Positions 46,230-60,152 of a stretch of 64,000 nucleotides of DNA are shown here, in pieces. The DNA is from a virus (Duplodnaviria; Heunggongvirae; Uroviricota; Caudoviricetes): the IMG/VR virus record IMGVR_UViG_2513237251_000004; one strand, 5' to 3'. How positions within the stretch are numbered: position 1 is the first letter of the stretch; each line of letters opens with the position of its first letter. Below the pieces are notes generated by a model, which worked only from the letters and a program-made list of their open reading frames with translations, was not told where the DNA came from and did no database searches. A program made the position numbers and the translations under genes.

Positions 46230-46964
46230 ATGAAGAGTATAGCAACACTGGTTGTGTGTGCAATCTCCGGGATTGCCTGTGTAAATTTATCTGCACATGC
46301 AGCAGAAGGAGAGCATACAATTTCTCTGGGGTATGCGCACTTTCAGTTTCCGGGACTGAAGGATTTTGTAAAGGATGCGACTGCTCATAACAGGGAGACT
46401 TTCAGTCATTTCGTCAACAGAAACTACTTTTCTTCATTGGGCGAATATACAGATGGTCGGGTCAGTGGATATGAAGGCAAGGATAAAAATCCACAGGGCA
46501 TTAATATCAGGTATCGCTACGAGATAACGGATGATTTTGGCGTTATCACCTCTTTTACATGGACGCGTTCTCTCACTAACTCACAGACATTTATTGATGT
46601 GCAGTCAGCCGATCATACCAGGAAGATTAAGAATCCGGCAGCTTCTGCCAGAACGGATATCAGGGCGAATTACTGGAGTCTGTTAGCGGGGCCTTCATGG
46701 CGGGTTAATCAGTACATGAGTTTATATGCGATGGCAGGGATGGGCGTTGCTAAAGTTAGCGCTGACCTGAAAATTAAGGACAATATTAACAGTAGTGGCG
46801 GATTTTCTGAAAGCAACAGCACGAAAAAAACCTCCCTTGCGTGGGCTGCAGGTGCACAGTTTAACCTGAATGAGAGTGTTACACTGGATGTGGCTTACGA
46901 AGGTTCCGGCTCTGGCGACTGGCGCACGAGTGGCGTTACTGCTGGCATTGGCCTGAAATTCTGA
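46230..46964 (+). CDS. lom: Ail/Lom-family outer-membrane beta-barrel protein
   Basis: Signal peptide, alternating beta-strand pattern, C-terminal ...GIGLKF. Confidence 0.7.
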   Translation: MKSIATLVVCAISGIACVNLSAHAAEGEHTISLGYAHFQFPGLKDFVKDATAHNRETFSHFVNRNYFSSLGEYTDGRVSGYEGKDKNPQGINIRYRYEITDDFGVITSFTWTRSLTNSQTFIDVQSADHTRKIKNPAASARTDIRANYWSLLAGPSWRVNQYMSLYAMAGMGVAKVSADLKIKDNINSSGGFSESNSTKKTSLAWAAGAQFNLNESVTLDVAYEGSGSGDWRTSGVTAGIGLKF

Positions 46965-46988
46965 CCTGTATCCGGTAACCGTTTACTA

Positions 46989-47012
46989 CCCGCTGTGATG
47001 GCGGGTTTTTTA
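46989..47012 (+). terminator. Rho-independent terminator after lom
   Basis: CCCGCTGTGATGGCGGG plus TTTTTTATT. Confidence 0.6.
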
Positions 47013-47196
47013 TTGCCCGTACAGGGCAAAAACCGTAAATTATGCGTGGGTGCCTTTCGGCTGATGGCTGGAGGGTGAACCTGAAGGCCTGATGTGGAAA
47101 GGCCCCGAGTCAACTTAACGTTAACCCGAGGCCCTAACACTTCGTACCTTAAGCAAGTAGAAGGTTAGCGCCTCTCTGTAAAAGGAGTCAAGCGCT

Positions 47197-47337
47197 ATGT
47201 CGCAAAAATCGCTTATCACCGTCACAATTTGCATGACGGTTATCTTCACCATCTGGATGTTGCACGGTTCACTGTGTGAGTTCCGGCTGAATTTGTGGGG
47301 AGCGGAGTTTGCGGCGTTCTTACAGTGTAAGCAGTAG
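47197..47337 (+). CDS. Hok/Gef-like type I toxin candidate (46 aa), absent from ORF track
   Basis: AAGGAG RBS 8 nt upstream; MSQKSLITVTICMTVIFTIWMLHGSLCEFRLNLWGAEFAAFLQCKQ: TM helix then SLCE[FI]R ... E[FV]AAF as in Hok. Confidence 0.45.
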   Translation: MSQKSLITVTICMTVIFTIWMLHGSLCEFRLNLWGAEFAAFLQCKQ

Positions 47338-47417
47338 GAAAACCGCGACGGGGACGAGAGTCCCCGTCAACTGGTTGCTGAGGTTCAGCCGATATGGCAC
47401 CCGTTTCAGGTGAGAGA

Positions 47418-47795
47418 ATGAACGATAAAATTCTCTGGTATATGCAGCGTGTTGTGAGAAATTCCCGCAACCCTGAATTTATGAATGAAGTTAAAGACGC
47501 CTGCCTTAAAAAGCAGGCGTTTTGTTTTGAGGCACCTGATGGCTTTTTGGTGCTGCGTTCTGTGCTCAGTGCTGATGGTATCCCTTATGTTCTGGTGTTG
47601 CTGGGCGTGTGTACGGGGAGTAACAGCGTTGAGCGTTACCTGCCGGAGGTGAAGACATTAACCCATCTGGCTGGCGGACGCTGGGCTGAGTTCCATACGG
47701 CAAGGCGGGGATTTATCCGGCTGGGAAAACGACTGGGCTTTGAGCGAATGCCGGATGATGAGGATGGCTTCATGGTGTTCAGGATAGCGGTCTGA
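47418..47795 (+). CDS. Hypothetical protein
   Basis: ORF from internal ATG at 47418. Confidence 0.35.
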   Translation: MNDKILWYMQRVVRNSRNPEFMNEVKDACLKKQAFCFEAPDGFLVLRSVLSADGIPYVLVLLGVCTGSNSVERYLPEVKTLTHLAGGRWAEFHTARRGFIRLGKRLGFERMPDDEDGFMVFRIAV

Positions 47796-59996: not shown

Positions 59997-60152
59997 TTAC
60001 TTCTCAGATTCGTAGTCTACGAAGACAGCGACCTCCGTCTGACCGGTTCGGATTCGCACCTCGCAGAGGTCTTTCCTCGTTACCAGTGCCGTCACTATGA
60101 CGGTTAAACAGATGACGATCAGGGCGATTAACATCGCCTTTTGCTGCTTCAT
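59997..60152 (-). CDS. hok: Hok-family type I toxin
   Basis: MKQQKAMLIALIVICLTVIVTALVTRKDLCEVRIRTGQTEVAVF... from ATG at 60152 with AAGGAG RBS; near-identical to HokC/Gef. Confidence 0.8.
   Translation of the reverse strand: MKQQKAMLIALIVICLTVIVTALVTRKDLCEVRIRTGQTEVAVFVDYESEK

Follow-up and report, generated by a model that had tools for sequence, protein, structure and literature searches.

A predicted hok/sok-type cassette beside lom in Stx phages, and its antisense RNA known as EcOnc53, sRNA108 and the 24B_1 precursor

Organisation of the lom-adjacent locus

In the window (the whole 64,000-nucleotide stretch of phage DNA that was analysed), the outer-membrane protein gene lom is followed by a self-contained cassette of about 390 nt, spanning 47013 to 47402, in which most components of a type I hok/sok toxin-antitoxin (TA) locus can be recognised. 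The toxin gene, its transcript and the flanking genes are arranged as follows:

46230-46964, plus strand: lom, coding for an Ail/Lom outer-membrane protein (Pfam Ail_Lom, 113 bits); upstream neighbour, outside the module
46988-47006, plus strand: intrinsic terminator-like hairpin of lom, followed by a T-run
47013-47041, plus strand: inferred hok promoter, with -35 TTGCCC (47013-47018), a 17-nt spacer and -10 TAAATT (47036-47041)
47048-47402, plus strand: inferred body of the hok mRNA, reaching from its 5' end through the fbi element
47197-47337, plus strand: hok-family toxin ORF of 46 aa, MSQKSLITVTICMTVIFTIWMLHGSLCEFRLNLWGAEFAAFLQCKQ
47418-47795, plus strand: downstream phage gene, homologue of ECs_1237 / vb_24B_43, outside the module

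A consensus promoter scan of 46900-47500 flagged no promoter, missing both the hok promoter and the antisense promoter described below because each falls short of its 4-of-6 rule for the -10 box; both promoter calls rest instead on conservation. Among 51 distinct related loci, the set used for promoter and ORF counts, the hok -35 box reads TTGCC[CG] in 43 and the -10 box TA[AG]ATT in 46, and the two are 17 nt apart in all but one (50/51), with a divergent spacer sequence that exists in 16 versions. The putative first nucleotide of the mRNA, G47048, lies 6 nt past the -10 box; its counterpart in Sakai NC_002695.2 is at about 1292470. A search for an intrinsic terminator downstream of fbi found none in the Stx-phage context, and the inferred mRNA body is taken only that far. 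The gene that follows has an annotated start at 47394 that would overlap fbi; the PHROG 610 profile starts at residue 9, which corresponds to the ATG at 47418. Equating this gene with the morphogenesis gene ECs1232 (Mondal 2016) was considered and rejected, as in the Sakai annotation it is ECs_1237.

The same cassette is found in two unrelated phage backbones, after lom in short-tailed Stx phages and after ogr in P2-like prophages. Homology between the two groups is limited to the stretch from the -35 box to fbi, with conservation ending right past 47402, and the cassette is free of insertion sequence (IS) or frameshift disruption. These boundaries suggest a mobile 'moron' that has been inserted between lom and the phage gene that follows. 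A profile scan of genomes, which returned mostly HokD/RelF-like genes because HokW had been included in the query alignment, was left out of the analysis.

A Hok-family toxin gene

The first-pass annotation of this DNA had proposed a 46-codon Hok/Gef-like ORF with a strong ribosome binding site (RBS) behind the lom terminator. The hairpin and T-run of that terminator are present, and the RBS reads AAGGAG at 47182-47187, 9 nt upstream of the hok ATG. The motif resemblance, for which a profile search had been suggested, is above chance, since the ORF matches both Pfam PF01848 HOK_GEF (33.2 bits, gathering score 22; E 4e-8), with residues 8-44 aligned to positions 6-42 of the 42-position profile, and PHROG 251 over its full length (85.8 bits). 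Hydrophobicity, on which the topology is based, predicts an N-terminal transmembrane helix followed by a periplasmic tail with Cys27 and Cys44; in alignments with HokW and HokA the tail carries the conserved cysteine of the L-C-E motif and E-x-A-x-F.

The further suggestion that this protein represents a lineage distinct from the hok gene near 60 kb is borne out, as it shares only 37% identity over 35 residues with the product of that gene, HokW. Its closest named relative is HokA of E. coli K-12 (45% identity over 47 residues). It is nevertheless ruled out as a HokA equivalog, scoring 38.4 bits against the NF007290 cut-off of 89; this is its best NCBIfam match, and it falls below the cut-offs of both the HokA and the Hok-family models. 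PADLOC returned no match for the 46-aa Hok or for HokW.

Variable sites within the Stx-type copies of the ORF comprise nine synonymous and no nonsynonymous changes, dN/dS between Stx-type and P2-type copies is 0.24-0.56, and the frame is intact in 51/51 of the distinct related loci that could be translated. Judged by this pattern of substitution, the peptide is under purifying selection. On sequence grounds, then, the ORF is a genuine Hok-family membrane-toxin gene, with toxicity predicted from the family.

The family call itself is not new, because in more than a thousand E. coli genomes the RefSeq PGAP pipeline has annotated the ORF as "Hok/Gef family protein"; PV189404 also annotates it, as 'MokW-like host killing'. 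The first-pass description of the gene as unannotated therefore holds for Sakai (NC_002695.2) and Phi24B (HM208303) and fails for PGAP RefSeq genomes and PV189404. The listings for 933W (AF125520) and VT2-Sakai show one hypothetical protein besides lom under the match, with no Hok-family label.

Structure of the hok mRNA

The transcript contains the following elements, all on the plus strand:

47048-47064, plus strand: tac-like 5' element, pairing with fbi in full-length RNA or with 47097-47106 in 3'-truncated RNA
47094-47168, plus strand: putative GTG leader ORF of 24 codons, in the mok-like frame
47128-47174, plus strand: Sok-target hairpin of the 3'-truncated mRNA, with apical loop CUUAAGCAA at 47148-47156
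47167-47196, plus strand: RBS-sequestering hairpin, in which CUCU (47174-47177) pairs with GGAG (47184-47187), closed by AGCGC/GCGCU
47346-47369, plus strand: conserved hairpin just 3' of the hok stop, 100% paired, with compensatory changes in 4/9 pairs
47371-47402, plus strand: 3' regulatory stretch, comprising a dcb-like box (47371-47384) that pairs with the Sok-target region, and fbi, which pairs with the 5' end

The hairpin-rich leader expected of a hok-type mRNA is indeed present. The 363 nt from 47048 to 47410 fold at -155.4 kcal/mol, compared with -119.3 +/- 5.4 for shuffled sequences (z = -6.7), with the 5' and 3' ends brought together. The Rfam sok model (RF01794), which represents the sense-strand leader of hok mRNA, matches 47048-47210 on the plus strand over the full model length at 35.6 bits (E 2e-6 in a local 601-nt search), with its position 1 on 47048, yet this is below the gathering score of 59; a scan of the whole window at the gathering threshold reports sok solely at 60147-60321.

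Structure comparisons covered 47 sequence variants, found in Stx podophages and in P2-like prophages. The predicted clamp between the two ends consists of GGGUGCC/GGCACCC and UCGGCUGA/UCAGCCGA, fbi being made up of 47385-47392 plus GGCACCC at 47396-47402. Over the variants pairing is maintained in 90.6% of the clamp cells, compared with 24-47% in controls with a slid partner; helix 1 is 98.8% paired, and in helix 2 double changes occur in 6/8 pairs. For the whole mRNA structure the figure is 90.8%, with 24 covarying pairs and about 36-44% in slid controls, so that structures including fbi, the dcb-like box and the anti-Shine-Dalgarno (anti-SD) sequence are kept with compensatory changes. The alternative 5' hairpin is recovered by RNAalifold with four compensatory pairs.

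The alternative fold is a thermodynamic prediction, obtained as the minimum free energy structure of the 3'-truncated RNA 47048-47369. In full-length RNA, 47146-47160 is instead predicted to pair with 47371-47384. The predicted probability that the Sok-target loop is unpaired rises from 0.23 in full-length to 0.75 in truncated RNA, a rise seen in 46/47 variants; when the RBS is considered as well, the predicted switch in accessibility is found in 46-47 of the 47. The Shine-Dalgarno sequence has an unpaired probability of 0.01 in full-length RNA, and even truncation is predicted to leave the RBS mostly closed, with a mean unpaired probability of 0.09 (0.31 for the window copy).

In plasmid R1, coupled translation of hok requires the mok frame, and it is this frame that Sok targets directly. 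The window copy has no mok frame overlapping hok, and the only candidate is the 24-codon GTG ORF, which stops at the base of the anti-SD hairpin, 28 nt short of the hok ATG. In about 17/47 relatives the mok-like frame extends over 61-87 open codons, overlapping hok; it ends early in the others, and in some Stx-type variants is even shorter than 24 codons. The cassette may be a natural hok variant that works without mok, which would make it useful for studying the evolution of RNA switches.

The antisense RNA is EcOnc53/sRNA108/24B_1

Three features lie on the opposite strand of the leader:

47089-47155, minus strand, ends approximate: Sok-like antisense RNA (EcOnc53 / sRNA108 / '24B_1 precursor')
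47104-47123, minus strand: the 20-nt 'microRNA-size' 24B_1, UAACGUUAAGUUGACUCGGG, an exact match to the published sequence (PMC4426718)
47162-47191, minus strand: antisense (sok-type) promoter, with -35 TTGACT (47186-47191) and -10 TAACCT (47162-47167)

An antisense regulator had been anticipated at about 47100-47200, and the sequence offers both a conserved promoter and a terminator hairpin for one. The -10 box is invariant in 36 of the 37 leader variants used for antisense promoter counts, and the promoter spacer diverges. The RNA has a single-stranded 5' tail, to which the Sok-target loop CUUAAGCAA is complementary at the antisense 5' end, followed by a 14-bp terminator hairpin at 47102-47134, and folds at -32.5 kcal/mol (z = -5.3). 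This hairpin contains three G-U pairs when read on the minus strand, which would be A-C mismatches on the plus strand, and it is kept in P2-type loci despite different sequences in the upper stem.

An RNA from this strand is already in the literature, detected by Hfq-CRAC, dRNA-seq and Term-seq, under the names EcOnc53, sRNA108 and 24B_1 (Tree 2014; Gruber & Sperandio 2015; Nejman-Falenczyk 2015, 2023). It is 67 nt long by dRNA-seq/Term-seq and binds Hfq with a Kd of 25 nM, and after coordinate calibration the published Hfq-CRAC peak maps to about 47092-47151 on the minus strand. The probe used in the 2014 work corresponds to 47154-47189, a stretch upstream of the predicted antisense start. 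The antisense promoter boxes are identical to those of the published 'p24B_1' (PMC4426718). With strand, promoter boxes and 20-mer all shared, the antisense RNA of the hok cassette is the same molecule as EcOnc53/sRNA108/the 24B_1 precursor. The published accounts treat it as an orphan Hfq-binding sRNA or as the precursor of a trans-acting microRNA; the words hok and sok do not occur in the papers examined, and no open-access literature linking it to hok/sok was found.

The 20-mer, represented by 2223 identical reads 80 min after induction (PMC4426718), comprises the loop of the Sok-like terminator hairpin together with its 3' arm. It is most simply explained as a stable fragment of that hairpin, and has been judged a likely degradation product by Sy & Tree. 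An RNase III cut within the hairpin is an unlikely origin because the ends of the 20-mer are not opposite one another in the stem, being 9 bp apart; cleavage of the hok/Sok duplex or stalling of an exonuclease are possible ones.

The published genetic constructs also bear on hok. The 189-nt deletion in the Delta24B_1 mutant corresponds to 46997-47185 and removes the 3' arm of the lom terminator together with the hok promoter, all of the leader and the greater part of the RBS, while the complementing plasmid, by its primers, carries 46885-47450 and with it the whole cassette including the Hok ORF. Since both deletion and plasmid involve hok, the published phenotypes are not assignable to the RNA alone. 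The hok start codon itself lies outside the antisense RNA.

A proposed mechanism

Collectively these features make it highly probable that 47013-47402 is a complete hok/sok-type type I TA cassette, mobile and separate from hokW-sokW, and probably functional, its function being predicted. Its weak promoter would give rise to a stable hok mRNA of about 355 nt or more. In the full-length RNA the 5' end (GGGUGCC...UCGGCUGA) would be clamped to fbi, the Sok-target boxed by the downstream sequence and the RBS held in a local hairpin, and because of the clamp, the paired Sok-target and the buried RBS this RNA would be neither translated nor bound by antisense RNA. For this step the fold is predicted and its conservation and covariation are observed, and the behaviour is extrapolated from the R1 hok paradigm of the Gerdes laboratory. 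Slow 3' trimming would then remove fbi and allow the 5' end to form its own hairpin with 47097-47106; in the trimmed RNA a long hairpin is predicted on thermodynamic grounds, in 46/47 homologues, to present the loop CUUAAGCAA, with the RBS partly freed.

The antisense step takes the RNA and its Hfq binding from the literature and extends them to an inferred action on hok. A short-lived RNA of about 60-67 nt, transcribed from TTGACT/TAACCT, would meet the loop with its 5' tail and form a duplex, which would let the anti-SD re-close the RBS and would probably trigger cleavage by RNase III. Should the antisense supply fail, the 46-aa Hok would be made and inserted into the inner membrane, where, as expected from its family, it would collapse the membrane potential and ATP.

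Alternative explanations

Many chromosomal hok loci are inactive, and the most durable alternative, though an improbable one, is that the same has happened here: truncation of the mok frame and closure of the RBS would have ended translation of hok in Stx phages, the antisense RNA having been kept as an Hfq-dependent trans-acting sRNA. All five chromosomal hok loci of K-12 are regarded as inactivated, and the 24-codon mok-like frame of the window copy, its further shortening in some Stx-type variants, the largely closed RBS predicted above and the binding of the antisense RNA to Hfq all accord with such decay. Against it stand the absence of any nonsynonymous site alongside the nine synonymous ones in Stx-type ORFs, a frame that is intact in every translated copy of a cassette with neither IS nor frameshift, and the retention, with compensatory changes, of non-coding elements relevant only to translational control (fbi, the dcb-like box and the anti-SD).

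Marginally less probable still is the published view, in which a dedicated microRNA-like gene makes an 80-nt hairpin precursor that is processed to the 20-nt 24B_1, the small ORF being irrelevant, and 24B_1 acts in trans through limited complementarity on d_ant and sdhB, favouring lysogeny and lowering ATP. The 20-mer and its promoter match the published sequences exactly, and this account can point to the 2223 identical 20-nt reads at 80 min after induction, to the effects of deletion and trans-complementation on lysogenisation, survival and the timing of induction, to a weak gel-shift of the 20-mer with the sdhB 5' UTR (<10% bound) and to an ATP drop in plasmid- or prophage-carrying cells. 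However, the 'precursor' has the architecture of a Sok RNA and runs exactly antisense to a conserved hok leader; the 20-mer, as loop plus 3' arm of a terminator hairpin, is a typical decay remnant, with which Sy & Tree concur; the 46997-47185 deletion and the 46885-47450 plasmid are both confounded with hok; the Hok peptide is under purifying selection; and a drop in ATP would be expected of a leaky toxin of the Hok type. That the ORF arose by chance in a structured intergenic spacer or terminator region can practically be dismissed: it is very short and had no Hok-family label in the original 933W, Sakai and Phi24B annotations, but its Pfam and PHROG matches, synonymous-only variation and occurrence in two unrelated phage backbones refute the idea.

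Implications for Stx phage biology

The phenotypes ascribed to 24B_1 are increased lysogeny, improved survival of the infected cells, induction that proceeds more slowly, a lower cellular ATP level and changes in TCA metabolites. A tentative reading, which we would put at somewhat under even odds, is that EcOnc53/sRNA108/24B_1 serves as the Sok-type antitoxin in a second hok/sok module that has gone unrecognised, that these phenotypes stem largely from perturbed or over-dosed Hok, and that a HokA-like cassette moves as a unit between Stx phages and P2-like prophages. Loss of membrane potential and ATP could then alter the ATP-dependent turnover of CII and CI. Promoter, leader and antitoxin of hok are all missing from the 24B_1 deletion mutant, and the 'overproducer' plasmid bears the toxin gene. 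A Hok-type peptide is an obvious candidate cause of the reported ATP drop.

Stx2 phages are the key elements of EHEC virulence, and the amount of toxin released depends on their balance between lysis and lysogeny. If the cassette is active, phages of the Sp5/933W type carry two hok/sok systems, of which hokW-sokW is already known to speed phage release, and a decade of work on the '24B_1 microRNA' needs re-reading. The orphan Hfq-bound sRNA EcOnc53 would also gain a cognate target.

Comparison with known hok/sok systems

The window contains a second, experimentally proven locus of this family:

59997-60321, minus strand: hokW-sokW of prophage Sp5 (Takada et al. 2021, PMC8621323)
59997-60152, minus strand: hokW, inside an ORF at 59997-60209 (minus strand) of 70 aa with an in-frame upstream extension

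It was considered whether the lom-adjacent cassette might be the published hokW-sokW, and this was rejected because the primers in PMC8621323 (ATGAAGCAGCAAAAGGCGATG) and the 51-aa length of HokW (MKQQKAM...) fit the locus near 60 kb. The two loci share prophage, family and the cores of tac (GGGUGC) and fbi (GCACCC), have similar antisense terminator hairpins and correspond element by element; sokW is partly Hfq-dependent, in keeping with the Hfq-bound antisense RNA here. Their Sok-target regions are unrelated, so that cross-talk is unlikely.

HokA of E. coli K-12 (b4455; NF007290) shares the motifs W-M-x-x-x-SLCE and AAFL-x-CK with the 46-aa Hok. It is 50 aa long, and hokA is a chromosomal gene with IS150 adjoining.

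The hok/sok system (parB) of plasmid R1 (Pfam PF01848, Rfam RF01794) resembles the cassette in encoding a membrane toxin of about 50 aa with an LCE...E-x-AAF tail, and in its long structured mRNA, the 5' end of which pairs with a 3' fbi and takes up an alternative hairpin, here predicted, once the 3' end is trimmed. Both have an antisense RNA of about 65 nt that is transcribed from a convergent promoter within the leader and meets the loop of the target hairpin with its 5' tail. The antisense -10 box is TATCCT in R1 and TAACCT, at the homologous position, in the cassette. Unlike R1, the window copy has no mok frame overlapping hok, its antisense RNA covers only the GTG/ATG start at its own 3' edge, and in the model an anti-SD switch would act directly on the hok RBS to control it. 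The cassette also differs in a leader too divergent to reach the Rfam gathering score and in lacking a terminator after fbi, and it is carried by phages rather than by a plasmid.

A hok gene downstream of lom

A Stx2 prophage of the 933W/Sp5 type makes up the window; 933W, VT2-Sakai and a large number of Stx2a phages match it over 46960-47400 at 100% identity. The features at the toxin gene are:

46230-46964: lom (Pfam Ail_Lom)
46988-47006: terminator-like hairpin with T-run, 3' of lom
47182-47187: ribosome binding site (RBS) AAGGAG of the Hok ORF
47197-47337 (+): Hok ORF, 46 codons, after the lom hairpin

The first-pass annotation had placed a 46-codon ORF with an RBS past the lom terminator, and this is borne out. 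Its proposed Hok/Gef resemblance was put to profile searches, in which the product, MSQKSLITVTICMTVIFTIWMLHGSLCEFRLNLWGAEFAAFLQCKQ, scores 33.2 bits against Pfam HOK_GEF (E 4e-8; gathering score 22) and 85.8 bits against PHROG 251 ('MokW-like host killing'), and the observation is therefore confirmed. The peptide falls under the cut-offs of the NCBIfam HokA model (38.4 vs 89) and of an NCBIfam Hok-family subfamily model (22.7 vs 73).

The description of the ORF as unannotated holds for the Sakai reference NC_002695.2 and for Phi24B HM208303, neither of which has a CDS there, but not for PGAP-annotated RefSeq genomes, where it is named 'Hok/Gef family protein'; the family call is already known, in RefSeq. 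The 933W and VT2-Sakai listings have, besides lom, a single named feature under the match, one hypothetical protein. Of 5426 complete E. coli genomes, 1674 contain a related sequence.

The six distinct Stx-type ORF sequences vary at nine synonymous and no nonsynonymous sites, dN/dS against copies from P2-like prophages is 0.24-0.56, and each of the 51 distinct related loci with a translatable sequence keeps the ORF intact. These patterns argue for selection on the Hok protein, although toxicity is not thereby proven. In the comparison with P2-type copies, the C-terminal half is under tighter constraint than the transmembrane half.

A self-contained cassette in two phage contexts

Relatives drawn from E. 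coli genomes, GTDB genomes and IMG/VR fall into two contexts. In short-tailed Stx phages the cassette lies 3' of lom and all copies encode one identical protein; in P2-like prophages it lies directly 3' of ogr, at the prophage end, and the protein is 70-78% identical. DNA similarity between the contexts extends from the sense -35 box (47013) to just past GGCACCC (47402) and the flanks are unrelated, a pattern that marks the hok cassette as a self-contained unit on sequence comparison. The sense promoter, missed by a simple consensus scan, has the pattern TTGCC[CG], 17 nt, TA[AG]ATT, 6 nt, start G. The -35 box is kept in 43 of 51 loci, the -10 box in 46 and the 17-nt spacing in 50, with 16 versions of the spacer sequence.

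The P2-like prophages with the cassette straight after ogr, at their very end, include L003, L004 and L040-L102 (IMG/VR). Dozens of IMG/VR provirus contigs stop exactly 3 nt past the hok ORF match, and these ends look like provirus boundaries trimmed at the last gene call. Loci L006, L007 and L009 are enterobacterial hok cassettes whose contigs have the labels Xanthomonas pisi, Planococcaceae MAG and Vagococcus sp., probably through contamination or mis-binning; the Xanthomonas pisi-labelled contig is 857 nt long and 100% identical to the window, and L007 has a masked N run across the leader.

The sense RNA and its predicted switch

The Rfam sok model matches 47048-47210 (+) over its full length, with 35.6 bits (local E 2e-6), short of its gathering score of 59. 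The hairpin-rich, hok-type leader that had been anticipated is supported by folding: RNA 47048-47410 reaches -155.4 kcal/mol, where shuffled sequences give -119.3 +/- 5.4 (z = -6.7). In the predicted fold of 47048-47402, GGGUGCC (47048-54) pairs with GGCACCC (47396-47402) and UCGGCUGA (47057-64) with UCAGCCGA (47385-92), which together form a predicted tac/fbi clamp, the pairing of 5' and 3' elements that is a defining feature of hok mRNAs. The same fold pairs 47146-47160 with 47371-47384, the RBS GGAG (47184-87) with CUCU (47174-77) within an AGCGC/GCGCU stem, and the hok AUG with 47308-47317. No intrinsic terminator was found after fbi in the Stx context.

Across 47 distinct variants, 90.6% of clamp cells are paired, against 24-47% with the 3' partner slid; helix 1 is 98.8% paired and helix 2 has two-sided changes in six of its eight pairs. 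For the whole fold the figure is 90.8%, against about 40% in slid controls. Derivation of the fold from one of the sequences favours it on this paired-cell measure, for clamp and whole fold alike; the 24 covarying pairs, which include helix 47146-60/47371-84 and the post-stop-codon hairpin, are less affected.

RNAalifold prefers a helix of GGGUGCCUUUC (47048-58) and GAAAGGCCCC (47097-106) that includes four compensatory pairs, and this 5' hairpin is also predicted to form on removal of the 3' 33 nt. In the shortened RNA, 47128-47174 is predicted to refold as one long stem-loop. The 9 nt of its loop, CUUAAGCAA (47148-56), complement the antisense RNA's 5' end. By partition function, the unpaired probability of the loop is 0.23 in full-length and 0.75 in truncated RNA (46/47 variants), while RBS accessibility over the 47 variants shifts from 0.01 to 0.09 (0.31 in the window) and returns to 0.01 in 47/47 with the antisense-complementary stretch blocked. 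These shifts suggest that an anti-Shine-Dalgarno (anti-SD) switch controls the hok RBS, and in these models the sense RNA would behave like a hok mRNA.

The next gene, a homologue of ECs_1237 and vb_24B_43, has its annotated ATG at 47394, overlapping fbi. Since the PHROG 610 profile starts at residue 9, the ATG at 47418, after GGTGAGAG, is the likelier start, and the annotated one is probably eight codons too long.

The antisense RNA is 24B_1/EcOnc53/sRNA108

The antisense gene and the published features that map to it are:

47186-47191 (-): antisense -35 TTGACT, 18 nt from the -10
47162-47167 (-): antisense -10 TAACCT, invariant in 36/37 leader variants
~47155 to 47089 (-): predicted antisense transcript (fold -32.5 kcal/mol, z = -5.3)
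47104-47123 (-): 24B_1 20-mer, exact match
47162-47191 (-): p24B_1 promoter boxes, coinciding with the sok-type promoter
46997-47185: published 189-nt deletion
46885-47450: pUC18_24B1 insert (566 bp, from its primers)

The predicted RNA has a single-stranded 5' tail of about 20 nt and a 14-bp terminator hairpin (47134-47102) with three G-U pairs, whose plus-strand equivalents are A-C mismatches. In P2-type loci the upper stem differs in sequence and complementarity is kept. Variability in the cassette peaks just downstream of the antisense start, which would fit diversification of antisense specificity. At 47138-47147 Phi24B (L002 1024-1033) departs from the window by three substitutions and the loss of 1 nt (ACACTTCGTA vs ACCATCATA). 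These changes fall on the predicted Sok-target hairpin, in its stem, and within the stretch complementary to the antisense 5' tail, the most variable segment over all relatives.

24B_1 was described as a 20-nt 'microRNA-size' RNA, TAACGTTAAGTTGACTCGGG, from the lom-vb_24B_43 interval of Phi24B, with a proposed promoter (-35 TTGACT, -10 CGCTAACCT) and a precursor put at 80 nt (Nejman-Falenczyk et al. 2015, PMC4426718). Within the antisense terminator hairpin, the 20-mer makes up the loop and the 3' arm. Sy & Tree (PMC7873438) equated 24B_1 with EcOnc53 (Hfq-CRAC) and sRNA108, gave a length of 67 nt from dRNA-seq and Term-seq, and regarded the 20-mer as a likely degradation product, with the mechanism unclear. 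The precursor binds Hfq with a Kd of 25 nM, and cells with the 24B_1 plasmid or prophage have less ATP (PMC10732415).

The 189-nt deletion takes out the lom terminator's 3' arm along with the hok promoter, the entire leader and most of the RBS, and it also removes the antisense -10 box and RNA; the Hok ORF stays. The pUC18_24B1 insert, called 'the 189-nt region' in the 2023 follow-up (PMC10732415), contains the entire cassette, Hok ORF included; Sy & Tree (PMC7873438) likewise read it as a 566-nt construct.

An Hfq peak is listed at 1292386-1292438 (-) in old Sakai coordinates (Tree et al. supplementary table). Calibrated with AsxR (shift +128 to +135) and the window offset at lom (1245422), it falls at ~47092-47151 (-), over the predicted hairpin and 3' tail; this peak, the conserved -10 box and the retained terminator hairpin support the short antisense regulator expected over the leader. 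The EcOnc53 northern probe maps to 47154-47189, the antisense promoter, upstream of the predicted start, and a probe placed there rather than on the RNA body may explain the entry 'Not detected' (Tree et al. 2014 supplementary table). A later review table still gives 'Northern probing' as confirmation.

Neither 24B_1 paper (PMC4426718, PMC10732415) uses the words hok, sok or toxin-antitoxin, and hok and sok are missing also from reviews and from Tree 2014 with supplements; the only one of the open-access papers searched to have '24B_1' together with 'sok' treats them as unrelated items. As far as the open literature was searched, the link to hok/sok had not previously been made, and through it the published phenotypes can be re-read in a simple way that is open to test. 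That the Hok peptide is toxic and is neutralised by the antisense RNA is what we infer.

Other features of the window

Other RNAs in the window, all above the Rfam gathering score, are:

7763-7821 (-): lambda cIII thermoregulator
19294-19491 (+): C4 antisense RNA with a1/b1 targets, isrK
22684-22932: three tRNAs
24341-24545 (+): STnc100, abutting AsxR
24547-24599 (-): AsxR
62944-63032 (-): sRNA-Xcc1

The offset to Sakai Sp5 (NC_002695.2) is 1244082 at AsxR and 1245422 at lom, so Sakai has about 1340 bp more between them (window ~24600-46200), roughly what an IS element would add. The window comes from a close relative of Sakai Sp5, not from Sp5 itself.

Comparison with hokW-sokW and R1

Sp5 already has a working type I toxin-antitoxin pair, hokW-sokW, which speeds phage release (Takada et al., PMC8621323). 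The lom-proximal ORF is not hokW: published HokW has 51 aa and its cloning primer starts ATGAAGCAGCAAAAGGCGATG, which identify it as the minus-strand ORF near 60 kb. The Discussion of Takada et al. (PMC8621323) makes no mention of a second hok in Sp5. The features of the hokW locus are:

59997-60152 (-): hokW ORF, 51 aa, published primer
60147-60321 (-): Rfam sok match, strong (113.5 bits)
59997-60209 (-): 70-aa in-frame mokW-hokW ORF
59997-60321 (-): whole hokW-sokW locus, characterised by experiment

Here the match to Rfam RF01794 ('sok antitoxin') lies on the hok ORF's own strand and ends at the hok AUG; the family as built thus models the hok mRNA leader, not the antisense RNA.

The suggested divergence of the two toxins holds, with 37% identity over 35 residues, and the region downstream of the antisense start is wholly different at hokW. 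The nearest named protein is K-12 HokA (45% identity). The earlier Hok-like toxin interpretation is thus supported and the finding is real: the locus is a new, uncharacterised hok/sok member, HokA-like and moving between phage backbones.

The sole leader ORF in the window has 24 codons from a GTG (47094-47168) and stops at the base of the anti-SD hairpin, with 28 nt left before the hok ATG; a ribosome that terminates there, at 47166-68, could unwind the anti-SD stem. The frame has 61-87 codons and runs over hok in about 17 of 47 relatives, and in others it stops far earlier; coupling through so inconsistent a frame is a possibility only. Whereas hok/sok of plasmid R1 has a mok frame overlapping hok, the lom-proximal locus apparently does without one.
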